Positions 1,871 to 46,067 of a DNA stretch of 49,268 nucleotides are shown one piece after another. A program made the position numbers and the translations under genes. How positions within the stretch are numbered: the first letter of the stretch is position 1; the number at the start of each line of letters is the position of its first letter. The DNA is from Candidatus Woesearchaeota archaeon (lineage in GTDB: Archaea; Nanobdellota; Nanobdellia; Woesearchaeales; DSVV01), in the NCBI GenBank assembly GCA_041671005.1, contig JBAZCJ010000001.1:1-49268 (forward strand). Reading direction: 5' to 3'. The notes below the pieces were generated by a model. That model made no database searches and had not been told where the DNA came from. It was given only the letters and a program-made list of their open reading frames with translations.

Positions 1871-3547
1871 ATGGTCACTAATTTTGAAGCTGGAACATTC
1901 GTTAAAGAGATGTATGAAGCAATAGGGTTTATAGAAGAAAGTAGAGTTCCTTTTGATCCAGATACTATTCAAGAGCGAGGATTTTCTTATTTACAAGAAA
2001 AATGCAGAGTAACAGGACCACAATTTCTCGCAGAAGTACTATTTCCATGCCCCCCAACAGCTGAAGAAGTTCAAAAACTTACTTTGCTTCTCAGATCTCC
2101 TGGAGAGTATCATAAACAATTTCCTCGAATGAGACATAAAGAAACTCCAAGGTTATGGGATATTGGAGATTTAATAGATGACTGTTTGAACCATAAAAGA
2201 CCATTAGATTTACGCAGCGAAGACACTAAACCTGAGGATTATAATTATCCTGAGCAAGTATACCATTTAACTGATGTTCGACTTGGAGATTTAGTAAATT
2301 GGGGTAGTTATCTCATTAAAATAAATCATAATAGATATGAGAGTGCATTATTATTTCATTGGAGAGGAATATTTACACAGCACCTTATTGAAAGTGACCT
2401 TCAAACACTTGCAGATGCTATAAAAATAAAAGGAAGCAGAAAAGATTGGAAAAATCTTAGAGAGTTGTATTCAATTTTAATCCCCTATAATCCTACTATT
2501 CCGTTTAATTATGCACCTCATATAACAAGCGTTATTGACGGACCATCACATCAGTCTAATTGGATACCCCCTGAAGATGACAACGACATAAAGAGTGTAT
2601 GGAAAAAATATGCACCAACCACAGATATTCTCGACAAAATTGTTGAGTTAGACAGAATATTTGCAGAACCACAAACAAAATATGATTCTCTTGCAGATAT
2701 TCTTAATGCATTAAATGTTCCTGAAGAAGTAAGAGGAAATAAAGTAATATGGGAAAATATCAGAACCATTGATGTAAATCATCGAATTAGTACACATAAA
2801 TCATATAAAGTAACAACTCGAAATGGAGAAAGATTATTCCTTAAAATTCATGACAATCCGATGAAAGCAGAGATAGAAGCTGCTGCAAATTATTATTTAT
2901 CTGGCTCTATGAGTTTTATAGTTCCTGGATTGCATCCTAAACCATTAGAAGCAAATGGATTATATGTTACTGTACAACAAGATGTTTCTCAAAGATTACA
3001 AATTGAAAAACCTGTTGAATTTTGGATTGAAGCTATAGCAATATTTCATAGAGAAGCTGAACACATTCTTACTAAATATGGTGTAAACATTCCTTCATGC
3101 ACATTAAGACAACCAGAATATTTTAGAGAAATGGTTGATAAAACTGCAGGAAGGCATCCATTAGATTATTCTGCTCGTTTAGAAGAGTCATGTGCATATC
3201 TTGCACAATTGCCACGAGGAGTTAGTATTGGTGACAGAACAGCAAGTAATTGTGAAGGAAATTTTTTATTAGATTTAGAGGGAGTTAATATGGGCCCACA
3301 AATTCTTGATTTACCATTAGTATTGATAAAAAAAAAAGTACCACCAGAAGCATGGGATCATTATATGAATCAATATCTCACTACAAGAGGAACAGATTCT
3401 TTTGACAATGATATGCGCACGTTAAGAGAAGCCATGCCTTATGCTGCAGCCTATGCTATAACTAAAGAAGTATTAGGGATATCAACTCGTAGAATAACTC
3501 CTCGGATTAAAAGACAAAGAGGTACACTTCTCAGCTATTTATGCTGA
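1871..3547 (+). CDS. large protein with C-terminal protein-kinase-like / aminoglycoside-phosphotransferase-like domain and an unknown N-terminal region of about 330 aa
   Basis: YKVTTRNGERLFLKIHD resembles the APH/kinase N-lobe. GDRTASNCEGNFLLDLEGV fits the catalytic-loop D-x-x-x-x-N followed by a D-[LF]-[EG] metal-binding motif. The track ORF starts at 1850; 1871 is preferred from TATA spacing. Confidence 0.45.
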   Translation: MVTNFEAGTFVKEMYEAIGFIEESRVPFDPDTIQERGFSYLQEKCRVTGPQFLAEVLFPCPPTAEEVQKLTLLLRSPGEYHKQFPRMRHKETPRLWDIGDLIDDCLNHKRPLDLRSEDTKPEDYNYPEQVYHLTDVRLGDLVNWGSYLIKINHNRYESALLFHWRGIFTQHLIESDLQTLADAIKIKGSRKDWKNLRELYSILIPYNPTIPFNYAPHITSVIDGPSHQSNWIPPEDDNDIKSVWKKYAPTTDILDKIVELDRIFAEPQTKYDSLADILNALNVPEEVRGNKVIWENIRTIDVNHRISTHKSYKVTTRNGERLFLKIHDNPMKAEIEAAANYYLSGSMSFIVPGLHPKPLEANGLYVTVQQDVSQRLQIEKPVEFWIEAIAIFHREAEHILTKYGVNIPSCTLRQPEYFREMVDKTAGRHPLDYSARLEESCAYLAQLPRGVSIGDRTASNCEGNFLLDLEGVNMGPQILDLPLVLIKKKVPPEAWDHYMNQYLTTRGTDSFDNDMRTLREAMPYAAAYAITKEVLGISTRRITPRIKRQRGTLLSYLC

Positions 3548-4433
3548 TTAACCGAGAGGAAATATGTTTATACAAATTAAGAAGATAATAATGATGCATA
3601 AGAACAACAACGTTTTCTTTTGAAATCTGCGCAAGACACTTGGATTCATACTGTTTTAATTCTACGCGCATAGCATATGTTTTTTTTAGATCTTTTTTTA
3701 GAAATGCTTCATACAATTCCTGAATGAAATGAATTTGATTTTCAACACACATTGTTTTTTTAATTTTTTTCTTAACTATATCTTCTGCAAGTAAATAATA
3801 TTGGGCAGTAATTTTTTCAAGAACAGTAACGAGATCATAATAATCATAAGATTTATCTCCCCCATGATTATTTAAATGAATCATACGAAGACAATGATCA
3901 CGAAGCTTCATGTTATTTATTTTTACAAGAGTTTGTATATTCTCAAGATCGGTATTTTGCCAATTCGTAACAAGTGTTTCTGCAACAAGCTTTGTTATTT
4001 GAAACATTTTAATGATTAATTGCTCTGTTTCATCAGTTTCTTTTGATAAAAATGATTTAATAATACATTGTTCTGCTGTTTGAGAAACAATTTCTAACCC
4101 AGTAAATGAACTGACTATTGTGTTAAGTTGGTCTAAAGAAGGTTGAACTGTGTATAACAAAGCGATTTCATCATATCCTGCTTTGTATGCAGATGCAATT
4201 GCTGTTCGAAGGTTAGGAAGATTTTCTTTTGTTACTTGTATTTGTGTTGTCTTTAAAGAAGCAGTTCCTTTTCCTGAGAGTACAAGAGTATTGTCTTTTG
4301 AGATTAGTTCTATATCATCTCCTTGTTTTAAAGAATGCTGTTTCACCCATTGTGCAGGCAATGAAACCATTAATGTAATGTCACCATGTTTGACTAATTT
4401 TCTCTTCATAGATGTTAAGATAACAGAAGTCAT
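3531..4433 (-). CDS. AbrB/SpoVT-domain plus PhoU-domain transcriptional regulator (archaeal PhoU-like)
   Basis: N-terminus KLVKHGDITLMVSLPAQWVKQHSLKQGDDIELISKDNTLVL is a SpoVT/AbrB swapped-hairpin motif. The helical remainder has PhoU-like repeats (MFQITKLVAE..., RDHCLRMIHL...). Confidence 0.7.
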   Translation of the reverse strand: MTSVILTSMKRKLVKHGDITLMVSLPAQWVKQHSLKQGDDIELISKDNTLVLSGKGTASLKTTQIQVTKENLPNLRTAIASAYKAGYDEIALLYTVQPSLDQLNTIVSSFTGLEIVSQTAEQCIIKSFLSKETDETEQLIIKMFQITKLVAETLVTNWQNTDLENIQTLVKINNMKLRDHCLRMIHLNNHGGDKSYDYYDLVTVLEKITAQYYLLAEDIVKKKIKKTMCVENQIHFIQELYEAFLKKDLKKTYAMRVELKQYESKCLAQISKENVVVLMHHYYLLNLYKHISSRLISINS

Positions 4434-4451
4434 ATTTAAAGTTTTCTAAAA

Positions 4452-4489
4452 ATGTAAACAATGTAAACATTGTAAACAAAATGTAAATA
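4452..4489. promoter_or_regulatory. array of four 9-bp direct repeats (ATGTAAACA x2, TTGTAAACA, ATGTAAATA) in a divergent promoter region
   Basis: Read directly: aatgtaaacaatgtaaacattgtaaacaaaatgtaaata. It lies between the AbrB-PhoU regulator start (4433, minus) and the secretome operon start (4539, plus). Confidence 0.6.
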
Positions 4490-4538
4490 TACTAGTTAAT
4501 CAAACCTACTAAGTAGTAACAACATAAGGGGAAAACAA

Positions 4539-5222
4539 ATGAAAAACACAAATATGATTACAACATTAACTGGATTAGCAGCATTAACCTTGTCTACTCC
4601 TCTATATGCACAAAGTACAAGTGAAGAAGCATATTGGGCAGATGTTCCTATAGAAGCACATGAAGTACCTATAGGAAAATATGTTCTTACAGAAAAAGAA
4701 CAGACGATAGTTTGGCAAGAAGATGTTTATGCGTGGAGAGTTCAATCAAGAACATTAGATACCTTAGATTCAAACATAATTAACAGCGTTTACCAAGTAT
4801 TGAACGGTGTTGCTGCACAAATAATTATCGTTCCTGGAAAAGATTCAATAATAAACATGAGTTGTTCTCCAAGTACATATTTACGAGAACATCCAGAAGA
4901 TGCAGATCTGTTTGTTCATACTCGTGGACTTATGGGAATTCTTGAAACCTACACAAATATTGAAACTGATCCACGCGCTGAAAAAGTTATTCAAATTATT
5001 TATGATAGAAATCATAATGGAAAATTAAGTGAAAAGGAAAAGATCAAAGGTGAAAAAAAGTTTACACACTTCTTGAGGGATGCGGTTTTAGAACAGGTTC
5101 CTCTCGACGGAAATTATCATGCAGTATTTGTAGCAGATTCGTCTTTAAACGGATTTGAAAAACAATTTGATAGATATCATCCACAACACAAATCACGTAG
5201 AGAACAAAGAAAGTATGAATGA
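4539..5222 (+). CDS. secreted protein with one canonical EF-hand Ca-binding loop (paralogue A)
   Basis: Signal peptide MKNTNMITTLTGLAALTLSTPLYAQ. EF-hand loop DRNHNGKLSEKE (nt 5004..5039). Clear paralogy with the next gene (EEAYWADVP / SVYQVLNGVAAQ / KKFTHFL / NYHAVFV). GGGG SD-like upstream. Confidence 0.7.
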   Translation: MKNTNMITTLTGLAALTLSTPLYAQSTSEEAYWADVPIEAHEVPIGKYVLTEKEQTIVWQEDVYAWRVQSRTLDTLDSNIINSVYQVLNGVAAQIIIVPGKDSIINMSCSPSTYLREHPEDADLFVHTRGLMGILETYTNIETDPRAEKVIQIIYDRNHNGKLSEKEKIKGEKKFTHFLRDAVLEQVPLDGNYHAVFVADSSLNGFEKQFDRYHPQHKSRREQRKYE

Positions 5223-5271: not shown

Positions 5272-6297
5272 ATGAAAAACGCAACTATTATTCCAACATT
5301 AACAGCATTAGTTTTAAGTGCAAGTGCACCAGCATATGCACAAGAACGTGATGAAGAATATTGGGCAAACTTACCAGTTATAACTCAAGAAGTACATATT
5401 GGAAAATATACACTCACCATAACTTCTAAAGAAGATAATATGTATACATTAAATATAGATACTCCTGAACGAAGAGTAAGAGCCAGCGTTTACCAAGCAT
5501 TAAACGGTGTAATAGCACAAGTAGATGCATTCCCTGGAAGAGATACTACATCAAAAATATGGTATGGTTCCAGCAGAGCATTAATAGAAGACCCAGAATA
5601 CGGGGCAATGTCATTAGAAAATGGAATGGTCTTAGAGTATACTATATTAGACTTAGCAACTAATTCTGATGCAGAACAATTTGTTGAATTTGTTTATGAT
5701 AAAAATCATGATGGACTACTTACTGAAAGAGAAATGAAAGAAGGGGGAGAAAAATTTAGCTACTTTTTATTTGACGCAGAAATTGAAGCTGCCCCACCTG
5801 ATGAAAAATACCACACGGTATTTGTTACAAGTCCTGGGTTAACAAGATTCAAAGAAAAATTTGGAGCATATCAGTATGACAAAAAAAAGTATGAACCAAC
5901 AGAGCATGAACGAAAATTAGGTGCAGTTATTGATTATATGATAGCTCATCCTGATGAACGGGGCATTTTTTCCTTAACACTAGGAGAAGGAATTTTCCAC
6001 ACTGATTTGTACCTGTCTTCTGCACCTGTAGATGCAGGAAGTATTTTTACGATTCGATTGAATGATGGAGATGAATATGTAGATTCTGGAAATAATATGT
6101 ATTCTTCCATTGAACAACGATGTTATCTCGACGGACAATTAGATGAAGTTTCTTCAAGAGATTATGATAAATTTCGTATGCACGATAGTACTTGGCATAG
6201 TGGAGAAAGTTTCACTCGAACGATAACTGATGATATGCAATCAGAATACGAGCAAACGATTGACTTGGCATACAAAGAAGTTCAAAAATTAAAGTGA
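5272..6297 (+). CDS. secreted protein with one canonical EF-hand loop (paralogue B, with a C-terminal extension of about 140 aa)
   Basis: Signal peptide MKNATIIPTLTALVLSASAPAYAQ. EF-hand loop DKNHDGLLTERE (nt 5698..5733). GGAGG SD 8 nt upstream. Confidence 0.7.
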   Translation: MKNATIIPTLTALVLSASAPAYAQERDEEYWANLPVITQEVHIGKYTLTITSKEDNMYTLNIDTPERRVRASVYQALNGVIAQVDAFPGRDTTSKIWYGSSRALIEDPEYGAMSLENGMVLEYTILDLATNSDAEQFVEFVYDKNHDGLLTEREMKEGGEKFSYFLFDAEIEAAPPDEKYHTVFVTSPGLTRFKEKFGAYQYDKKKYEPTEHERKLGAVIDYMIAHPDERGIFSLTLGEGIFHTDLYLSSAPVDAGSIFTIRLNDGDEYVDSGNNMYSSIEQRCYLDGQLDEVSSRDYDKFRMHDSTWHSGESFTRTITDDMQSEYEQTIDLAYKEVQKLK

Positions 6298-12041: not shown

Positions 12042-12764
12042 TTGATAATAATGATACTTGAAAATAAAATAGCACAATTACAACGAGAGAATGGAACTGT
12101 TGAATTTTCTTTAACAAATACCACTAATACAAATGAAGGATTAACAGTTGTCGTTGATAAGATCGATGATCAAGCATATGTTTATTTAAAATTTTATTCA
12201 ATAATGGGATTTCATTATGTTCCTTTAAATGAATCAGCATTTAATGATTGTTTTATAACAAGTCAGAGAAAAAATACACGAGAAGGGATTGCTATTTTTG
12301 ATATTAAAAAAAATCTCACCAATGCAAATTATAGTTTAGCAGGATTAGTTGATTATTTTGATAGACAATATGGAATCATTGAAGACGCAGCTGATTTAGG
12401 GTTCCTCTCTGATTCTCATGTATTTGATTTATTTGGAATTGGAAAACGTGCGAATAGAAGAGTTGTTGACAAATATGGACAAATTGCATTAGGGTGGGCG
12501 ATTGTTGAATATTGTACTGGAGAATTAAGTAATTTATTATCTGAACAAAGAGAAATGGGACATAGTAACTTTTATGGAGACATACAAATCATAGCAGAAC
12601 ATGCCTTAAGAAAAATGCATAGATTATATTCAAGAAGTCTTGACATGCACGGATTATTATATCAGGATCCTCATTTTATTATGGAACAGGAAAAACCAGC
12701 AGATTATACAACCTGGACAAGAAAACTCTTTGGAACAGGAATTCTTGAATCTCAAACCATCTGA
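12042..12764 (+). CDS. hypothetical protein (ATG at 12051 more likely than the TTG at 12042)
   Basis: Long ORF, no recognisable motif. Confidence 0.5.
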   Translation: MIIMILENKIAQLQRENGTVEFSLTNTTNTNEGLTVVVDKIDDQAYVYLKFYSIMGFHYVPLNESAFNDCFITSQRKNTREGIAIFDIKKNLTNANYSLAGLVDYFDRQYGIIEDAADLGFLSDSHVFDLFGIGKRANRRVVDKYGQIALGWAIVEYCTGELSNLLSEQREMGHSNFYGDIQIIAEHALRKMHRLYSRSLDMHGLLYQDPHFIMEQEKPADYTTWTRKLFGTGILESQTI

Positions 12765-14002
12765 ATAATCGTTGCACCGACCATTGTCATTGTAACAAGA
12801 ATTAAAAGAACAGTAGCTCCCCAGCAAATAATATTGTAAAATCTGCTATTTACATGTTCACCCATAATTTTTTCTTTGTTAATTAAATACAACATAGCAA
12901 CAAGAACAAAAGGTAATGCTAACCCATTGACAACTTGTGAAATAATTATCACGGGAATAAGTGGAACATTTGGAATTAAAACAATCATTGCAGATAAAAT
13001 AACCATTGCAACAATAATAACGTAAAATTTAGGTGCTTCATGATATTTTTTATTAACACCAGATTCCCATCCAAATGCTTCACAAATATAATACGCAGTT
13101 GAAAGAGGAAGAATAAATGCACCAAAAAAAGCAGCTGCAAATAATCCTACTGCAAAAAGCATTGATGCAAGATGACCTGCAAATGGTTCAAGAGCAATTG
13201 CAGCTTGATCAGCTGTTTCAATATGTATTCCATGAGGGAATAATGTTGCTGCTGCTGCAAGCATAATAAAAAAGGAAATACCCATAGAAATAATTCCACT
13301 AATAATTATTTCCCATTTTGCATACACATATTCAGATAATTTAACCCCTTTTTCAACAATAGCAGATTGAAGATAAAATTGCATCCACGGAGTGATAGAA
13401 GTTCCTAAAATCCCAACAAGAATAATCCAATAGTTCATACCAAACTGCAGAGTAGGAGTTATCATATTCCATCCCACTGTTGGCCAATCAGGATGCGCTA
13501 AAATTCCAGACAAAATATATGTTACATAAAATAAGCAAAGTCCTAAAAAAACACGTTCTAAATATTTGTAATTAACACGAATAATTAAAAATAAAACAAT
13601 AACAGCAGAACCAAAAACAACAAGATATTTGTTTAATCCAAAAATTTGCGCTGCAGCAGTAATTCCTGCAAACTCTGCAACTGTTGTTCCAAAATTTGCA
13701 ACAAATAAACCTATCATAAGCAAAACTGTTGTTCGCAACCCTACATTTTCACGAATTAAATCTGCAAGACCTTTTCCTGTCACAACACCCATACGCGCAC
13801 ACATTTCTTGAACAATAATCAACAATAACGCAAGAGGAATAATTGTCCAAAACATACTGTATCCATAGGACGCACCTGCAACTGAAAAAGTTGTAATCCC
13901 CCCAGCATCATTATCAGCAACTGCACTAATAATCCCCGGACCAATAATTGAGAAAAAAAACATAATGTTTCGAAAACTATTTCGAAAATCAAATTTGGCC
14001 AT
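12752..14002 (-). CDS. NRAMP/SLC11-family transporter with NRMT-like (putative Mg2+) substitutions
   Basis: 11-12 TM. The helix-1 motif reads D-A-G-G (nt 13898..13909) instead of DPGN. The helix-6 motif reads SITPWMQFYLQS (TPW at 13385..13393) instead of A-x-x-MPHN-x-x-LHS. AGGAGG SD sits 6-7 nt upstream, inside the preceding gene. Confidence 0.75.
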   Translation of the reverse strand: MAKFDFRNSFRNIMFFFSIIGPGIISAVADNDAGGITTFSVAGASYGYSMFWTIIPLALLLIIVQEMCARMGVVTGKGLADLIRENVGLRTTVLLMIGLFVANFGTTVAEFAGITAAAQIFGLNKYLVVFGSAVIVLFLIIRVNYKYLERVFLGLCLFYVTYILSGILAHPDWPTVGWNMITPTLQFGMNYWIILVGILGTSITPWMQFYLQSAIVEKGVKLSEYVYAKWEIIISGIISMGISFFIMLAAAATLFPHGIHIETADQAAIALEPFAGHLASMLFAVGLFAAAFFGAFILPLSTAYYICEAFGWESGVNKKYHEAPKFYVIIVAMVILSAMIVLIPNVPLIPVIIISQVVNGLALPFVLVAMLYLINKEKIMGEHVNSRFYNIICWGATVLLILVTMTMVGATIIQMV

Positions 14003-15329
14003 TGATGCCTCCTGATTTTAATTCTAATTTAAGATCGAGCTTAGGATCTATTTTATGTTTTCTTTTTGCTCGTTTAATGATTAGTTTTCTTCTAATCCAA
14101 GATTCAGGAATCACTTTTGTGAGAATTTCATCAGCAGTAATCATGCCTTTAAGCTTACTACTTTCATCTATAACAGGGATAACATAAAAATTATATTTTT
14201 CCAATGCAATTGCAATATCTTGTTTTGTCGCAGAGAGACCTACTGCCATAGGATGTTTTTTCATACTCAATTTTAACTTTTGACGAGGAGAAGCATTAAG
14301 CAACGTACGCACAGACAAGGTACCAACAAGATGATGGTCATGGTCAATAACAAAAAGAACGTGAATTTTATCTGCAGAAGGTTTTGATTTTTTAATATAT
14401 GAAATTGCTTGTGTCGCAGTCAAGTCATCATATAATGTAAAAACATCAGTTCTCATCAGTGCTCCTGCACTATTTTCAGGATATTGATGCAACTCCTGAA
14501 TACTTTTTGCTTTTTCAGGAGACATATGCTGCAAAATAAATTTAGCTTTTTCCTGATCCATTAAAATAAGAAGGTCTGCAGCTTTATACACAGGCATGCT
14601 TTCTAGCAATTCAACAATGCGAGGCACTTTTAATCCTTTGAAAAAAGATTCCTGGACTTCAGGCTGTGCTTCTACAAGTGTTTTTGCAGCAGTTTTTTTA
14701 TCAAGTTTGTTAAAAATAATCATCTGTTCTTTAGGAGTTAATTCTCCCATTAAATCCGCAATATCTCCTGGATGCATTTCTGCAATTTTTGTATGACTTT
14801 CTTTCAAATGAAGATGTTTATTTACTTCTAATGGTTCAACAAATTTCCAGGGAATAATACGTTCAGAAGTCATTGAATAAATAAATCGCCCAAAAACGTT
14901 TTGCTTAACACCTAATCGTCTAAAAAAACTTGTTGTACCAACACAAACCCCGGTAATACATAATTCTTCGTCTACTTTATTGAGCAATAAATCATTAACT
15001 CGAACAACTTTAACACCAGCAACATCAATTATTTGTTTATCTAGTAATTCATGTGCAAGAAGATCATGTTCATGAACAAATGTAAAATCCACATTTGAAG
15101 AAATAGTATTCAAAGAAATACTAAAGATTCCTGTAACTGTATCTTGTTTAATTCCTTGGACATAATCCCACGATACTCTTTTTTTATAATTATCTTTTGC
15201 AAGAAAAACAAAATAAATTATTTTTGCTGATTCCAATCCATCAACAAAAACAAGGTCACACAGTTTTCCAAGTATTTTTTTTTCGCTATCAATAACATCC
15301 TGATTAAATAATTCTGTGTAAAATACCAT
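13989..15329 (-). CDS. soluble PRC-barrel + MgtE N-domain + tandem CBS protein (MgtE cytosolic sensor module without a pore)
   Basis: ADLLILMDQEKAKFILQHMSPEKAKSIQELHQYPENSAGALMRTDV is the MgtE_N-to-CBS junction. Two CBS motifs follow (HVLFVIDHDHHLVGTLSVRTLL, YVIPVIDESSKLKGMITADEIL). There are N-terminal PRC-like repeats and a K-rich tail, but no TM segment. It overlaps the NRAMP start by 14 nt. Confidence 0.75.
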   Translation of the reverse strand: MVFYTELFNQDVIDSEKKILGKLCDLVFVDGLESAKIIYFVFLAKDNYKKRVSWDYVQGIKQDTVTGIFSISLNTISSNVDFTFVHEHDLLAHELLDKQIIDVAGVKVVRVNDLLLNKVDEELCITGVCVGTTSFFRRLGVKQNVFGRFIYSMTSERIIPWKFVEPLEVNKHLHLKESHTKIAEMHPGDIADLMGELTPKEQMIIFNKLDKKTAAKTLVEAQPEVQESFFKGLKVPRIVELLESMPVYKAADLLILMDQEKAKFILQHMSPEKAKSIQELHQYPENSAGALMRTDVFTLYDDLTATQAISYIKKSKPSADKIHVLFVIDHDHHLVGTLSVRTLLNASPRQKLKLSMKKHPMAVGLSATKQDIAIALEKYNFYVIPVIDESSKLKGMITADEILTKVIPESWIRRKLIIKRAKRKHKIDPKLDLKLELKSGGINGQI

Positions 15330-15495
15330 GGTTCCCCTTTTTTTTGATTCTCTTTAACATATAAAAAGCTTTTGTATTTGTTACCCCTTGATTGCAAACA
15401 ATAAAATGAAGTATCAAATTTTTTCAATAAATTTATATACCTGGTTTGGAAAGAGTCATAGTGAAAAAGATGATTCTTTTTCGAGGTGGTTTATT

Positions 15496-16167
15496 ATGCC
15501 AAAAAAAACAGTCAAAAAAGTAATAAAAAAAACAGCTAAAAATGTTCGAAAGATGCCACGAAAAGCAGTGAATGTAAAACCAGTTAATTCTATAACGCCT
15601 GTAACATTACCAGTTCAACCAACACAAACAGTTGAAACACAAGCACCACTCGTGCAAGAAGTTGTTCAACCTGTTACAGAAGCACCAGTCCAAAATGTTC
15701 CTACAGAACCAATTGTTCAAATAAAGGAGGAGTCTAAAATGACAGATGATAAAGGAGTTGGAAAAGATTATGACCCAACAGAATTTTCCCAGCCTGCAGT
15801 TCAGGCAGGAGACAGTAGTGGCTCAAAAATATTTTTATATGTCGGAATTAGTGTTGTCGTTATTGCATTAATTGTTGGCGGGTTATTTTTAGGAGGAGTC
15901 TTTAAACAAGGTTCATCCCAATCATTAACAGGCGCAACTGTTATTACAGCATACTGCACAGATTCAGATGGCGGATACAATAGATTCACCAAAGGTGTTG
16001 CAGAAGGAACATATTACCTTGATTATCAAGATGGAACATTTATGGATGAATGTGCATCTGGCGAAGAAAATAAATTAACAGAATATTACTGTAAAAATGA
16101 TCTTGTTGTCTATGTAACAGAACCATGCCCAGATGGAATGACATGCACTGATGGCATTTGCCAATAA
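15496..16167 (+). CDS. type II membrane protein: K-rich N-tail, P/V/Q-rich linker, one TM, Cys-rich C-terminal domain
   Basis: GAGGTGG SD 6 nt before ATG 15496. TM is IFLYVGISVVVIALIVGGLFLGGVF. The C-terminus CTDSDGG...DECASG...YYCKND...PCPDGMTCTDGIC has 8 Cys. The track start 15388 looks like a spurious extension. Confidence 0.6.
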   Translation: MPKKTVKKVIKKTAKNVRKMPRKAVNVKPVNSITPVTLPVQPTQTVETQAPLVQEVVQPVTEAPVQNVPTEPIVQIKEESKMTDDKGVGKDYDPTEFSQPAVQAGDSSGSKIFLYVGISVVVIALIVGGLFLGGVFKQGSSQSLTGATVITAYCTDSDGGYNRFTKGVAEGTYYLDYQDGTFMDECASGEENKLTEYYCKNDLVVYVTEPCPDGMTCTDGICQ

Positions 16168-23500: not shown

Positions 23501-24466
23501 TCATTTTAAACTTTTCTTACATATCTTTGCTTTTGGATCATCTATACATTTCTTTGATTTCCAGAAAAAGAATCCTATGACTCCAAACGTCATAACTGGT
23601 GAAACCCATTGAGGAATATGGACTCCGAAACTATCGGCAAGCATTATAGCCCCAAGAAAAAAGATTGAATACATTGCACCATTCTTGAGATATTTGTACT
23701 TTTTTATTGTACTTATGTTACTTACAGTAATATTTCTTAACACAAAAGCACCAATACCATTACCTATTAAAATTAAAGGAACTGAAAGTGTAAATGCGAA
23801 TGCACCAAGAACCCCATCTATTGAAAATGTTGCATCAATGACTTCTAAATAAAAGATTTTACTTAAATCAGTTCGTGTTTTTTCTAATAAGTTCTTTTCC
23901 TGCTCTTCGGCATTTTGCTTAAAACCATGAGTAATAAAAAATGCTGTTGAACCAACAACTGCACTAAAAGCCATAAATGGATTAACTTTTAATGCAAACC
24001 AAACAAGGATAGAAAGGAAAACAGAAACAACTGCAAAAAACCACACTCCTTTTTTCTGGATATATTCTTCACCAACCATACCATAATTTTTTGACTCAAG
24101 GAATAACCAATGAAAAAACAAAAAGACAAGAAATACACCTCCACCTGTCAGTAAAATAGGAGCGGAAAGTTCAATAGCTTCAATAATTTTAGGATCATTG
24201 CTAAATGTAGCTGTTAATGCTCCTATTGGACCAAGAGAAGGAGTGACTGCATACACAATCATCCACGGCAACATACCTCTAATAACAAAAACTGCAAATA
24301 AGATACCCCAAATTAAAAACCAACGACGAGCTTTTTCACCCATTGTTGATAATACTTCTGCATTAATAATTGCATTATCAATACTGCTGATTATTTCAAA
24401 TAAACAAAGACCAGCAATTGTTAAAATCATTAAAAGGATATCCATTATGCTTTTTTGATATGTCAA
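23501..24466 (-). CDS. integral membrane protein, DUF475 / TerC-superfamily-like
   Basis: N-terminal EIISSIDNAIINAEVL motif and multiple TM helices, typical of the DUF475/TerC fold. Confidence 0.55.
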   Translation of the reverse strand: MTYQKSIMDILLMILTIAGLCLFEIISSIDNAIINAEVLSTMGEKARRWFLIWGILFAVFVIRGMLPWMIVYAVTPSLGPIGALTATFSNDPKIIEAIELSAPILLTGGGVFLVFLFFHWLFLESKNYGMVGEEYIQKKGVWFFAVVSVFLSILVWFALKVNPFMAFSAVVGSTAFFITHGFKQNAEEQEKNLLEKTRTDLSKIFYLEVIDATFSIDGVLGAFAFTLSVPLILIGNGIGAFVLRNITVSNISTIKKYKYLKNGAMYSIFFLGAIMLADSFGVHIPQWVSPVMTFGVIGFFFWKSKKCIDDPKAKICKKSLK

Positions 24467-31776: not shown

Positions 31777-32502
31777 TCAAAAAAATAACAACACTAACCC
31801 TGTTAAGACTATCATATTTCCAAAATCAGCAACAGAGGTTGTAATCGGAATAAGAAAATTGTTTGGATCTTTTTCTTTTTTAAAATAATATAGTCCTGCA
31901 TAAATTGAAAGAACACATAACAATGCAACGATAATTAATACATCCAACAAAGTAATAACCAATATCTTCGCTGCGACAACAGGATTTACTGAATGTTCAA
32001 CAAAATATGTTACTCCAAGAGCTGTACATGCACTGAGGACTGCTGTAATTGATGCAATGATAAATATTTGAGTTAACAACTGCTGTACAATAAGATTTTT
32101 CCACCATAATTTTGTTATTTCCCTTTTATGGAGCATTGTTGAAAATCGTGAAGACACAATAGTTCCATAATCCCCAATCATATCATTTAATGTTGGAAGC
32201 AAAATAACTAACGGCATGATAGAAATAAATATTGTTTTTACTTCTTCTAATGCAAAACCTCCTAATGAACTAACAAGAGATGCTAATATAATTATTTTTA
32301 TACTTTCTTTAAGAATTGTTTTAGGAACATTACTATGCGCACCATATTCTTTAATATAAAACAAAGTTTTCTTGGAAATCTTATGAATATGATGAATATG
32401 GTGAATGAGAGGATGGTGTTTATGACGAGCAATTAGTTGAAGTTTTTTTAATTTTTTTTTCAGAGTATCTCTTTTGATTATCTTGTGAAAATGAAAGTTC
32501 AT
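31777..32502 (-). CDS. MgtE-type transmembrane (pore) domain protein with His-rich N-terminus
   Basis: DPNNFLIPITTSVADFGNMIVL is the MgtE TM5-type motif. The N-terminus contains HKHHPLIHHIHHIHK. There is no MgtE_N or CBS region. ATGA overlap with the upstream gene. Confidence 0.7.
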   Translation of the reverse strand: MNFHFHKIIKRDTLKKKLKKLQLIARHKHHPLIHHIHHIHKISKKTLFYIKEYGAHSNVPKTILKESIKIIILASLVSSLGGFALEEVKTIFISIMPLVILLPTLNDMIGDYGTIVSSRFSTMLHKREITKLWWKNLIVQQLLTQIFIIASITAVLSACTALGVTYFVEHSVNPVVAAKILVITLLDVLIIVALLCVLSIYAGLYYFKKEKDPNNFLIPITTSVADFGNMIVLTGLVLLFF

Positions 32503-33050
32503 ATGACCACCACCAATGCAAGTAAAATAGAAATAATACTAATGATATCTCCGGATGACGTTAAAAATGGGCCCATAATATTATTTGGATCATGACCTTT
32601 TTTGAACAAGTAAAATGTTGCAAAAAGAGTAAGAGGAATTTCTATTGCATTAGCAAGAATTCCTGCAAATAAAACAACAACAATAAGTTTTGGTGTGTAT
32701 ACTTGAAGAAAAAAATAATTGACAAAAAAAACAATAAGTCCTAATAGCAACGATACAATACCACTTAACACAAAAGATGCAATAACATTGCCTTGAATTA
32801 TTTTTGTTCTTGTAGGATTTGACTTCGCATGGATTACCCCTAAAAATAACCCTGAACTTAATCGTGATGCCAAAGGAGCAGTAATATTTGCACGCATTTC
32901 TAAAAATCCTGGCAACAAAATAAGCATACTAGGAATAAGAAGAATTTTTTCTGTATAAATTGCAAGCACTGTTCCTGCAATAAGACCCCCTGCAACTGAA
33001 ACTATTTGCGAAAAAAAGATTTCTTTAAAATTCATATCAAATATTTTCAT
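32499..33050 (-). CDS. MgtE-type transmembrane (pore) domain protein
   Basis: DPNNIMGPFLTSSGDIISIISILL, five hydrophobic helices, no cytosolic domains. Confidence 0.7.
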   Translation of the reverse strand: MKIFDMNFKEIFFSQIVSVAGGLIAGTVLAIYTEKILLIPSMLILLPGFLEMRANITAPLASRLSSGLFLGVIHAKSNPTRTKIIQGNVIASFVLSGIVSLLLGLIVFFVNYFFLQVYTPKLIVVVLFAGILANAIEIPLTLFATFYLFKKGHDPNNIMGPFLTSSGDIISIISILLALVVVI

Positions 33051-33240: not shown

Positions 33241-34230
33241 TTATAAACCGTGATTTAACTCATCTGCAATAGACTTTAATTTATCTAAAGAACCTACTAA
33301 AAGCTGCCTTACTCGTTCTTTACTAATGGGGGAGTCTAAACTAGTTCCTATATCTTTTAAGTATTGTTCACAAAAATAACGTTTATAAATAATCTCAATA
33401 ACACGGTTACTAAGCCCGGCTTTTGAAAGTAAAGTATGAATTTCTACATAGTCCATATCAACTTTAGAACTTGGATCCGGAAGATGATCATGTAATGTAT
33501 GACTTGAATCATCAACATCTATCGGTGCATCAAGAGAAGCAAATGAGGGTTTACTTCCTAAAATTTTTCTGCATTTATCAACATCCATTCCTTCTTGTTC
33601 TGCAAATTCTTCTAATGTTGCATCTGGATTATAACCTCTCATTAACTCTAACTTTTTTTCTGTACTCCAATGAGCATACCATTTATGTCTTGTCCACCTA
33701 GAATAAACCCCATTTGCTGCAGATTGAATAGTGCGATACATTTTATCATACACATATCCACTTAATTGAGTCCCATACGCAGGATCAAATTGCTTAATTG
33801 CTAACAATAATCCAATACTTCCTTCTTGCATTAAATCAGAAAGATCACACTCAGGTAAATTTAATATATGAAGAAAACGAGAAGCTATTGTACGCCTAAA
33901 TCCTTCATATTTCTTGGCAAGTTCACTAGGCGTAGCATGAAAATCAACACCATACAAATGAACAACATCAGTTTTAAGATAATATAGTCTTCCATTAATT
34001 TCATGTTGAGGGTTTGAACGAACACGATTTCGAATAATATCATTCAAACAAAAGTTTAAAGCATCTTGAACAGGAATAACTTCAATAAGAGGAGCTGAAG
34101 GCATTTCTAAAAGATCTCCAAAAATAGCTGCAAGATCAGAATCTAAAAAAGATAAACTTTCTGAAGGAACAAAGGCAGGATCAGGAACTGTTTTTACTAT
34201 ATCTGAAAGGGATATCACATCAATCACCAA
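33241..34230 (-). CDS. sigma-70 family RNA polymerase sigma factor homologue (regions 2, 3 and 4 recognisable)
   Basis: Region 2: DLMQEGSIGLLLAIKQFDPAYGTQLSGYVYDKMYRTIQ. Region 3: TLEEFAEQEGMDVDKCRKILGSKPSFASLDAPID. Region 4: LKDIGTSLDSPISKERVRQLLVGSLDKLK. Confidence 0.8.
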   Translation of the reverse strand: MVIDVISLSDIVKTVPDPAFVPSESLSFLDSDLAAIFGDLLEMPSAPLIEVIPVQDALNFCLNDIIRNRVRSNPQHEINGRLYYLKTDVVHLYGVDFHATPSELAKKYEGFRRTIASRFLHILNLPECDLSDLMQEGSIGLLLAIKQFDPAYGTQLSGYVYDKMYRTIQSAANGVYSRWTRHKWYAHWSTEKKLELMRGYNPDATLEEFAEQEGMDVDKCRKILGSKPSFASLDAPIDVDDSSHTLHDHLPDPSSKVDMDYVEIHTLLSKAGLSNRVIEIIYKRYFCEQYLKDIGTSLDSPISKERVRQLLVGSLDKLKSIADELNHGL

Positions 34231-35282
34231 CGAGCCCCATTAAATCCTTTATCCACTAAATATATTAAACATTGATTTGCAACTTCCCTTTCTAAAAAAA
34301 ACTGTTTTCCATGCCCGGTTTCATGAGGTTGTACTCTTCTTCCTTCTTGAGTATACCTCATATTTCCTGCAGTAGTTTTTTGTATATGATTTCTTAACTT
34401 TCCTTGAAAGTTTCTTGCCTCTTGCACAGATAGTGATTCTTGTGTAAATCGTGCAAAAATATTTCCAAAAGGAATTCTTTCTCCTTCTGCTTCTGAAAAC
34501 AAACGAACAGATTTTTCATCATAAGAATATGCACTACCAGAATTTCTAATTTCATTAAGAGGAATATATTTTTGAATATCAACAAGAGTTGGTGTAGGTA
34601 AAACACGTTCAGATACGCTGAAAAAACTAGCTCCATTAAATCCTTTATCCACTAAATACCTTAAACATTGGTTTGCAACCTCTCTGTTTAATAAATATTT
34701 TTTTCCGTGCCCTGTTTCATGGATTTGTACTCTTGTTCCATCTTGAGTATACCTAAGATATCCTGCAGTAGTTCGTTGCATCTTATTTCTTAGGCTACAT
34801 TGAAATCTTCTTATTTCTTGTCCACTTAACGATTCAGGTGTAAATCGTGCAAAAATTTCTCCATAAAATATTCTTTCTCCTTCTGCTTCTGAAAACAAAT
34901 TGACAGATCTTCCATTGTGAGAATATACTTCATCAGAATCTCTAAGTTCATTAAGAGGAGTATAGTTTTGAATATCAACCAAATTTGCAGGTAAAACAAG
35001 TTCAGTTACATTGAAAAAACTAACTCCTATAATTTTAAATGGTTTACTTGGTTCAGAAGAATATTCAAAATGAAGACTCCCTTTACTTTCGTCTATTGGG
35101 AATACTGCTATTCTTACAGAATTAAGATAAATCTGGATATGGGTTCCATGAATTACACAATCTAAAATCCCATTTTCCAATCCTCTTAATCCATAATGTT
35201 CAAGAGGAACAAGCCTATATCTTTTCGTTGTTGGATCAACAAGAGGAACTTCAACTGTTTTAACAATAGCATCAATACTCAT
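34224..35282 (-). CDS. unknown protein: N-terminal domain of about 95 aa plus two tandem copies of a 132-aa domain (HETGHGK motif)
   Basis: Internal repeat ...LVDIQxYxPLNExRxS...LFSEAEGERI..G.IFARFT.ESLS.QE.R.FQ..LRN..Q.TTAG..RYTQ.G.RVQ.HETGHGK..L.REVANQCL.YLVDKGFNGA occurs twice. The stop overlaps the sigma-like start by 7 nt. Confidence 0.65.
   Translation of the reverse strand: MSIDAIVKTVEVPLVDPTTKRYRLVPLEHYGLRGLENGILDCVIHGTHIQIYLNSVRIAVFPIDESKGSLHFEYSSEPSKPFKIIGVSFFNVTELVLPANLVDIQNYTPLNELRDSDEVYSHNGRSVNLFSEAEGERIFYGEIFARFTPESLSGQEIRRFQCSLRNKMQRTTAGYLRYTQDGTRVQIHETGHGKKYLLNREVANQCLRYLVDKGFNGASFFSVSERVLPTPTLVDIQKYIPLNEIRNSGSAYSYDEKSVRLFSEAEGERIPFGNIFARFTQESLSVQEARNFQGKLRNHIQKTTAGNMRYTQEGRRVQPHETGHGKQFFLEREVANQCLIYLVDKGFNGARW
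34235..35022 (-). repeat. intragenic tandem duplication, 2 x 396 nt, diverged copies that are still clearly alignable by eye
   Basis: Copies start at 34235 (ccccattaaatcctttatccactaaat) and 34631 (ctccattaaatcctttatccactaaat). The period is exactly 396 nt, so it is in frame. Confidence 0.8.
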
Positions 35283-45296: not shown

Positions 45297-46067
45297 ATGG
45301 GATATATTATTTACACATTTGCAAGTGTTATCATAGTTTCATTAATATCTGTTATTGCTGCAATACCGTTTCTGTTAAAAAAACAAATTCCTCATTCAAT
45401 TCTTATTATTTTAATGAGTCTTTCCGTCGGGACATTATTAGGCGGAGTCTTTCTTCATTTTCTTCCTGAAATTGCAGAAAAAGGGTATAACACATCTGTT
45501 GCATTATCAATAATTATTGGATTTATGGCATTTTTACTTTTGGAAAAAATGATTCATTGGCATCATGCAAAAAAAGTAGAAGAAAACTGTGAATGTGGTC
45601 ATGGACATGGATATCATTTTGCAATACTGAATCTGCTAGGGGATGGGGTACATAATTTCCTTGATGGGTTAGTTATTGCAGGAAGTTATGCAGTTAGTAT
45701 TCCATTGGGAATTGCTGCAACAACATCTGTGATTTTTCATGAAATTCCACAAGAAATGGCTGATTTTGGGATTTTATTATACGGGGGATTAAGCAAAACA
45801 AGAGCAATAATATTTAATTTTCTTTCTGCAACTGCTGCAATTATTGGAGCAATTACTGGAATTATGTTTACAGAACATATCCAGGGTTTTTCTGCTATGA
45901 TTATTCCCTTTGCAGCAGGTAATTTTCTCTACATTGCTGCATCAAATCTTGTTCCTGAATTACACAAACATTGCAAAATTAGTGAAACAATCATGCATAT
46001 TATTGCAATTGCAGCTGGTGTTGGCTTCATGCTTTTGATTGCAGTTTTTATTCCAGAAACACACTAA
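45297..46067 (+). CDS. zupT: ZIP-family divalent metal (zinc) transporter
   Basis: HFLPE, His-rich loop HWHHAKKVEENCECGHGHGYH, and HEIPQEMADFGIL signature. Confidence 0.85.
   Translation: MGYIIYTFASVIIVSLISVIAAIPFLLKKQIPHSILIILMSLSVGTLLGGVFLHFLPEIAEKGYNTSVALSIIIGFMAFLLLEKMIHWHHAKKVEENCECGHGHGYHFAILNLLGDGVHNFLDGLVIAGSYAVSIPLGIAATTSVIFHEIPQEMADFGILLYGGLSKTRAIIFNFLSATAAIIGAITGIMFTEHIQGFSAMIIPFAAGNFLYIAASNLVPELHKHCKISETIMHIIAIAAGVGFMLLIAVFIPETH

Follow-up and report, generated by a model that had tools for sequence, protein, structure and literature searches.

Genes for an NRMT-clade transporter and a pore-less MgtE-like partner form a candidate divalent-cation uptake operon in a DPANN archaeon

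Can the cytosolic portion of an MgtE channel, detached from its pore, regulate an unrelated transporter of the SLC11 fold? This question is raised by two minus-strand open reading frames (ORFs) in a 49,268-nucleotide stretch of DNA from a Candidatus Woesearchaeota archaeon (contig JBAZCJ010000001.1), hereafter the window, whose positions supply all the coordinates used below for this locus. The upstream gene encodes a soluble protein with the domains of the MgtE cytosolic portion, hereafter the partner, and the downstream gene encodes a transporter of the NRMT clade of the SLC11/NRAMP superfamily. The pair and the signal that lies between its members are as follows:

13989..15329, minus strand: gene for the soluble MgtE-like partner (446 aa), as defined by its ORF, Pfam, AlphaFold2 (AF2) and Foldseek
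12752..14002, minus strand: gene for the NRMT-clade SLC11/NRAMP transporter (416 aa), as defined by the Pfam Nramp model and the match to EleNRMT
14008..14013, minus strand: AGGAGG Shine-Dalgarno-like motif, 5 nt before the transporter ATG and within the last partner codons

We interpret this locus as an operon of two genes for the uptake of divalent cations in a Woesearchaeota-like DPANN archaeon, an explanation that, taken as a whole, appears to us somewhat better than an even bet. The host assignment follows the names of the homologues, since tRNA and Rfam scans of the window offered no taxonomic clue. The positions of the two ORFs given in a preliminary description of this DNA were reproduced from the sequence, as was their 14-nt overlap, with the transporter ATG at 14002..14000 and the partner TGA at 13991..13989; the AGGAGG which that description had placed in the last codons of the partner gene was likewise read at 14013..14008.

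The transporter matches the Pfam Nramp model (PF01566) over its entire length (profile positions 1-357 of 357; E 3.1e-93), with no record matching in a look-up of its exact sequence. Its best relative of solved structure is the NRMT of Eggerthella lenta (EleNRMT, 7QIA; E 1e-100), with which it shares 44% identity over 384 aa with zero gaps, as against E-values of about 1e-29 for the Mn2+-transporting NRAMPs, including DraNramp. Two motifs of its metal site depart from the canonical NRAMP sequence:

13898..13909, minus strand: helix-1 metal-site motif D32-A33-G34-G35 in place of the canonical DPGN, aligned with EleNRMT D55..G58
13385..13402, minus strand: helix-6 metal-site motif T201-S202-I203-T204-P205-W206 in place of the canonical A-x-x-M-P-H, the EleNRMT counterpart being T-T-I-A-P-W

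Additionally, W206 occupies the position of the proton-pathway histidine of NRAMP helix 6b, which is also replaced by a tryptophan (W229) in EleNRMT (PMC10115441), and the helix-10 Q356 and helix-3 E110 are retained. The published accounts of the NRMT and NRAT structures distinguish the clades by signatures, namely DxxN-AxxM in NRAMPs, DxxN-AxxT in the plant Al3+ transporters (NRAT) and DxxG-TxxA/T in NRMTs (PMC8806188; PMC10115441). Because the window transporter has the DxxG and TxxA/T signature, carries a Trp for the His and is closer to EleNRMT than to the Mn2+ NRAMPs, its sequence assigns it to the NRMT clade as a DxxG-TxxT version, a recognised variant. EleNRMT is described in the same work as an H+-uncoupled transporter of Mg2+ and Mn2+ (PMC8806188), and by homology the window transporter is predicted to be an uncoupled uniporter for Mg2+ and also for Mn2+. 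It shares with EleNRMT and the Clostridium acetobutylicum CabNRMT the fold and clade, the helix-1 DxxG, the helix-6 TxxA/T, the Trp and the helix-10 Gln; it differs from EleNRMT in carrying Thr in place of Ala where NRAMPs have Met, in its archaeal host, in the lack of an M-box riboswitch and in that its substrate is a prediction.

The preliminary description had recognised the replacement of DPGN by DAGG at 13898..13909, and both position and motif are right; further, the alignment with characterised NRMTs and NRAMPs upholds its placement of the protein in the NRMT clade, as the substituted residues do fall at the metal site. Its account of helix 6 stands in part: 13385..13393 encode T204-P205-W206, the counterparts of M-P-H, but the alanine of AxxM aligns with T201 and not with S202, a slip of one residue in the register (the window T201-S-I-T204 aligns with EleNRMT T224-T-I-A227). 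Similarly, of the two substitutions that it regarded as switching the site to Mg2+, Asn to Gly holds, whereas Met to Thr is imprecise: EleNRMT has Ala at the Met position, and the determinants assayed in it are Asn to Gly and Ala to Thr, the latter (T224) being required for Mg2+ (PMC8806188). A Thr in place of the Met is among the recognised NRMT states, as well as being a feature of NRAT (AxxT) (PMC10115441; PMC8806188). Among the 120 nearest homologues of the transporter, mostly from DPANN archaea, DAGG is found in 117 and Thr at the Met position in 98, and TxxA is the predominant helix-6 state among the 80 GTDB loci surveyed below. As a separate observation, a Nitrospirota subgroup of NRMTs (survey loci L005, L019, L022, L028, L033, L043, L061, L073 and L074) has D-A-S/P/T-G in place of the helix-1 D-A-G-G, always joined with TxxT in helix 6, a covarying variant of the metal site.

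The partner combines several domains, which are arranged as follows:

15096..15329, minus strand: PRC barrel 1 (residues 1-78), a beta-barrel in the AF2 model; the Pfam PRC match in homologues spans residues ~2-70
14832..15062, minus strand: PRC barrel 2 (residues 90-166), with the motifs LLDKQIID..G.KVVRVND and RRLG, and W161
14484..14792, minus strand: MgtE_N helical domain (residues 180-282; Pfam), aligned with residues 24-126 of Thermus thermophilus MgtE (TtMgtE)
14112..14468, minus strand: CBS pair (residues 288-406; two Pfam matches and Foldseek)
13992..14111, minus strand: polybasic C-terminal tail (residues 407-446) with 12 K/R against 4 D/E, replacing the acidic plug helix of MgtE

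Pfam detects MgtE_N (PF03448; residues 185-286, E 2.5e-22), two CBS domains (PF00571; residues 289-407) and a weak PRC match (residues 2-28, E 9e-5) in this protein; the MgtE membrane domain (PF01769) is not found in it by Pfam and it has no transmembrane segment. An AF2 model computed from 60 homologues (pLDDT 86.9) displays two beta-barrels, a helical domain, the CBS pair and a poorly defined basic helix at 409-424. In Foldseek comparisons, residues ~180-406 superpose on the cytosolic domain of MgtE (2YVY) with an E-value of 4e-21, a TM-score of 0.84 and a root-mean-square deviation of 2.1 Å. When modelled alone, the N-terminal 176 residues reach a pLDDT of 88.3 and a pTM of 0.83, and this tandem-PRC model finds its best match in the archaeal CdpB1/CdpB2 (8QZO; E 8e-6, TM-score 0.56-0.66), with further matches to RimM, the reaction-centre H subunit, MTH1859 and other PRC barrels. 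The resemblance to CdpB is one of fold only, at 12-15% identity, and the CdpB proteins are without MgtE_N, CBS domains or a link to transport. As the partner ends at residue 446 after a basic helix and has no membrane domain with the pore Asp, it is not an MgtE channel; it corresponds to the whole cytosolic part of a channel of the PRC-type MgtE kind, with the pore missing. In this Pfam, AF2 and Foldseek agree with the earlier account of a soluble protein composed of PRC barrels, MgtE_N and a CBS pair and lacking a membrane domain; even its “PRC-barrel repeats”, weak in Pfam, are backed by the modelled barrels and their Foldseek matches.

A 60-sequence alignment of the partner family shows that PRC barrel 2 holds 17 of the 39 positions that are at least 90% conserved, namely L96, D97, K98, Q99, I100, D102, G105, K107, V109, R110, V111, N112 and D113, together with R137, R138, G140 and W161. 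Judged by this alignment, the best-conserved element of the partner is the tandem PRC barrel, chiefly PRC2, a point added by the present analysis. The basic tail is present in nearly all members of the family.

That the two genes belong together is indicated by their conserved synteny. A scan of GTDB with one genome per species recovered 593 relatives of the transporter, of which the best 80 loci were retained; the six-frame ORFs of these loci were searched with a hidden Markov model of the partner family, and the 69 loci whose upstream sequence reached 1.4 kb or more were considered informative. A full-length homologue of the partner, including the PRC region, lies directly upstream on the same strand in 64 of the 69 (~93%). 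The gaps between the paired genes range from -55 to +152 nt, and 17 pairs overlap, 13 of these by a 4-nt ATGA. Paired loci occur in archaea (Woese-, Nano- and Altiarchaeota, Methanosarcinales and Methanocellaceae) and in about a dozen bacterial phyla, including Nitrospirota, Omnitrophota, Syntrophia, Geobacter relatives (Geobacterales), Acidobacteriota, Bacteroidota, Ignavibacteria, Planctomycetota, Bacillota, Spirochaetota, Zixibacteria and others. The upstream gene is absent in five NRMT loci (L018, L034, L053, L055 and L076). Of other partner homologues, the archaeal P0075 is paired, and the distant P0097 stands alone, without an NRAMP gene beside it. Further, an M-box Mg2+ riboswitch precedes the partner gene in four bacterial operons (L009, L037, L044 and L057), and at the partner-less L055 (Peptococcaceae CEB3) it stands directly before the transporter (5551..5717 of that locus), which suggests that RNA-level and protein-level control can replace each other.

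The same module also occurs in fusion to MgtE pores. A tandem-PRC profile searched against 1.84 billion cluster representatives retrieved 364 clusters at E<=1e-30, and among the best 150 of these, which were examined, 77 proteins have lengths of 400-470 aa and are stand-alone versions, and 17 have lengths of 581-670 aa; 13 of the 17 long proteins contain the MgtE membrane domain. These PRC-type full-length MgtE channels of ~600-650 aa (P0068, P0249, P0256, P0264, P0279, P0288, P0322 and others, and also 2614..4563 of locus L081) share with the partner the module of tandem PRC, MgtE_N and CBS pair, several of them together with the motifs LDKQ..D..G.[KR].V[KR]VND and LRRLG. The channels (e.g., P0068, P0249, P0256 and P0288, of ~600 aa) run on from the CBS pair into an acidic linker (mean net charge -3) and the membrane domain, in contrast to the stand-alone partners, of which that in the window ends in its basic tail beside an SLC11 transporter. 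Since the PRC2 motif is often found in the fused channels, it is not specific to docking on an NRAMP. At the level of architecture, the existence of full-length MgtE channels with the same PRC, MgtE_N and CBS domains lends support to the “modular swap” proposed in the preliminary description.

The arrangement itself, for which the preliminary description cited no characterised example, had already been recognised. Shin et al. (PLoS Genet 2014; PMC4072509) reported “mgtE-nramp operons”, in which a gene for the MgtE cytoplasmic domain adjoins most NrmT loci and is often co-transcribed with nrmT under an M-box, the latter being present in many members and not in all. They proposed cytoplasmic feedback regulation or chaperone activity for this ancillary gene, and also made an initial trial of co-expression, without any effect. 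The window partner gene has the same place immediately upstream of nrmT, the same homology to the N-terminal cytoplasmic region of MgtE and the same lack of a pore; as against their “small MgtE-like fragment”, the proteins seen here are ~420-450 aa long, with tandem PRC barrels in the N-terminal 170 residues and a polybasic end. No later functional work on the ancillary gene was found in the searched literature, and the partner is unmentioned in the passages on MgtE or NRMT returned from the EleNRMT and NRAT structural papers and from the later SLC11 papers that were searched. None of the matches listed for NRMT with CBS joined the two, nor was work joining the PRC-barrel with MgtE found in the searchable literature. 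The window pair is hence a new archaeal member of a known, functionally uncharacterised system, to which the present analysis adds the conservation of the PRC element, the occurrence of the module in a full-length MgtE subfamily, the polybasic tail as opposed to an acidic linker, and the loss of four of the six ligands in the window copy.

How might the two proteins work together? We favour, with a probability of roughly 55%, the reading that the operon supplies an NRMT uniporter for Mg2+ (and Mn2+) jointly with a regulatory subunit of the MgtE type, a cytosolic protein that curbs uptake according to a signal in the cytosol. By homology to EleNRMT, the transporter would mediate an H+-uncoupled uptake of partly hydrated Mg2+, and also of Mn2+, driven by the membrane potential. 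The partner, made together with it, would bind its cytoplasmic face, with the basic tail possibly aiding its placement at the membrane, and would throttle uptake when the cytosolic signal is high. In this manner the uncoupled uniporter would gain a negative feedback like that built into the cytosolic domains of MgtE and CorA. The signal could be Mg2+, because acidic sites are conserved across the partner family, perhaps with an adenine nucleotide in addition at the CBS pair, the ligand being uncertain for the window copy. The correspondence of the Mg2+-binding residues, with the TtMgtE sites defined as in PMC5882242 and the residues mapped by alignment, is as follows:

TtMgtE E59 (Mg7): window K216
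TtMgtE D91 (Mg4): window Y248
TtMgtE D95 (Mg6): window D252, conserved
TtMgtE D226 (Mg5): window N380
TtMgtE D247 (Mg4): window E401
TtMgtE D250 (Mg5): window T404
TtMgtE E258/D259 (plug helix, Mg2/Mg3): window I412/R413

Across the 63 GTDB partner pairs, D occupies the position of D95 in 61, that of D247 in 52 and that of D91 in 49, where a further 3 have E, with an acidic residue (D/E) at E59 in 44 and at D250 in 42. By these residues the partner family looks like a Mg2+ binder, and the window copy like a degenerate one. Compared with T. thermophilus MgtE (2YVY/2YVX), the window partner shares the fold of the N domain and CBS pair and keeps the equivalent of D95, the family at large keeping D91 and D247 as well; it differs in lacking the pore, in having the additional tandem PRC barrels and in the loss of the equivalents of D91, E59, D226 and D250. 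The idea that TxxT transporters might pair with ligand-poor partners was discarded, there being no correlation among the GTDB pairs; the loss is confined to the close relatives of the window.

Several observations weigh against the proposed feedback. In the window partner four of the six MgtE ligand positions are lost (the residues being K, Y, D, N, E and T, with just two acidic), and the acidic ligands of the plug helix, E258 and D259 of the Mg2 and Mg3 sites, are not retained in its basic tail. The ATP contacts, as defined in PMC5529423, are partly retained: R341 and F381 correspond to R187 and F227 of TtMgtE, and Y170, D188 and N203 are without equivalents. NrmT complementation works without the ancillary gene, and the co-expressed Acidobacterium capsulatum partner left rescue unchanged, with the transporter of that organism behaving as a Mn2+ importer that fully rescued the Mn2+ defect and partly the Mg2+ defect (PMC4072509); EleNRMT, too, transports without any partner protein (PMC8806188). 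The window and five archaeal loci lack a riboswitch, and no natural fusion of the partner with an NRAMP was found among the best 150 of the 364 tandem-PRC clusters or the long ORFs of the 80 loci, the long ORFs that were considered as such fusions being stop-to-stop artefacts or fusions to the MgtE pore. Finally, the ~93% pairing is to be read as that of the closest transporter relatives (48-58% identity), which make up the 80 loci, and not of the whole NRMT clade.

Of the alternatives, one holds that the partner senses a cue other than Mg2+, which might be an adenine nucleotide or other metabolite bound by the CBS pair, or else a ligand or protein bound to the conserved PRC2 surface, and that it tunes transport to the energy state instead of to Mg2+. 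The ligand losses in the window copy would be explained by this, as would the match of R341 and F381 to two ATP contacts; adenosine ligands are common in CBS pairs, as the Foldseek neighbours attest, and the family conservation peaks in PRC2 and not at the Mg2+ sites. However, the Mg4, Mg6 and Mg7 ligand positions are well retained across the partner family and Mg2+ riboswitches precede the bacterial operons, while Leu takes the place of F227 in 40 of 60 members of the family and the contacts N203, D188 and Y170 are lost, such that we consider a cue of this kind improbable, at perhaps one chance in five. An equally improbable alternative concerns the cation: the physiological substrate might be Mn2+ or another cation, with the pair constituting a Mn2+ system. 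This draws on the partner-associated A. capsulatum transporter with its fuller rescue of Mn2+ import (PMC4072509), on the carriage of Mn2+ by EleNRMT (PMC8806188), and on two features of the window, namely a Thr instead of Ala at the Met position and the absence of an M-box. It is opposed by the presence of all the NRMT signature residues, including the equivalent of the T224 needed for Mg2+ in EleNRMT, by the fact that TxxT falls within the NRMT consensus as published (PMC8806188), and by the Mg2+ riboswitches on closely related paired operons.

Less probable still is the possibility that the partner is a positive factor rather than an inhibitor: it might activate the transporter, help its assembly or stability, or serve as a metal chaperone to which the transporter passes its ions for handing on. 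Chaperone activity was raised by Shin et al. (PMC4072509), the gene overlap suggests stoichiometric co-production and the polybasic tail could keep the partner at the membrane; yet NRMTs work alone in cells and liposomes (PMC4072509; PMC8806188), co-expression brought no gain in rescue (PMC4072509) and the homologous MgtE module shuts its pore on Mg2+ binding (PMC5882242).

The last alternative involves a second set of MgtE-related genes in the window:

32499..33050, minus strand: pore-only MgtE ORF (183 aa)
31777..32502, minus strand: pore-only MgtE ORF (241 aa), overlapping the former by 4 nt

Both comprise the MgtE membrane domain PF01769 alone (E 5e-13 and 4e-15, respectively) with the pore Asp kept, and neither has a match in the PDB by phmmer. 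They constitute a conserved unit of DPANN archaea (180 aa and 231-244 aa). It is very improbable that the partner serves this pair as the separated cytosolic half of a split MgtE channel, its adjacency to the NRAMP being incidental: although the pore-only ORFs lack N and CBS domains and retain the pore Asp, and the fused PRC-MgtE channels show that the module can work with an MgtE pore, the pair lies ~18 kb from the partner gene and is without an MgtE_N or CBS neighbour in four DPANN loci, no ORF with an MgtE membrane domain occurs within 6 kb of the NRMT in any of the 80 loci, and the partner is directly upstream of the NRMT in 64 of 69. For want of linkage in other genomes, the pore-only pair was rejected as the main explanation of the soluble partner, and nothing observed here speaks for a regulation of the pair in trans.

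Returning to the preferred reading of a regulated uniporter, its wider import lies in the control of Mg2+ uptake. NRMTs make up a fourth class of Mg2+ importers in prokaryotes. The EleNRMT work makes them uncoupled uniporters, which raises the question of how cells escape Mg2+ overload through them, and since 2014 the obvious candidate for a regulator has been the conserved partner gene. The window locus adds nothing in kind; the survey sharpens the problem through the ~93% pairing, the four-part structure of the partner and the fusion of its module to MgtE pores, and it provides concrete constructs and mutants for studying the trans-regulation of an SLC11 transporter. The interest lies mainly in the tandem-PRC element and in the function of the partner. 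More tentatively, and with the odds against it, PRC, MgtE_N and CBS might together form a portable gating subunit, which would close MgtE pores in cis and, as a free protein with a polybasic tail, would dock in trans on an unrelated SLC11 uniporter, perhaps also acting on the pore-only MgtE pair of the window. If this were so, one sensor module would govern two transporter architectures, and a central functional part, overlooked in studies of MgtE regulation, would belong to the invariant surface of PRC2 (LDKQIID..G.KVVRVND / RRLG).

The surroundings of the operon may be described briefly:

15330..15496, no strand assigned: divergent intergenic region 5' of the operon, with the A/T-rich TATA-like TTTTTATAT at 15359..15367 and GGGG before the ATG
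15388..16167, plus strand: divergent ORF without a Pfam match, with a Lys-rich N-terminus, a Pro/Val/Gln-rich linker, one hydrophobic helix and a Cys-rich C-terminal domain; its start is likely an ATG near 15497
12042..12764, plus strand: convergent 240-aa ORF without a Pfam match, overlapping the 3' end of the transporter gene by 13 nt

The sequence TTTTTATAT (15359..15367) may be the promoter of the operon. A search of 15330..15496 for riboswitches returned no Rfam family at threshold, nor an M-box at a cut-off as lax as E<=10.

Next to the pore-only MgtE pair, 33241..34230 on the minus strand gives weak matches to sigma-70 region 2 and region 4 (E ~1e-6) in what is apparently an archaeal genome, and larger sigma70-like proteins are found at the syntenic position beside such pairs in related contigs (L086 1..1530 and L087 1..2526). 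The 352-aa ORF at 34224..35282 on the minus strand has no Pfam match and shows an internal duplication, with two ~150-aa halves containing long identical strings (LVDIQ.Y.PLNE.R.S...YS...SV.LFSEAEGERI and TTAG..RYTQ.G.RVQ.HETGHGK). Other metal-related membrane proteins encoded in the window are a ZIP-family transporter at 45297..46067 on the plus strand and a TerC/DUF475 protein at 23501..24466 on the minus strand.

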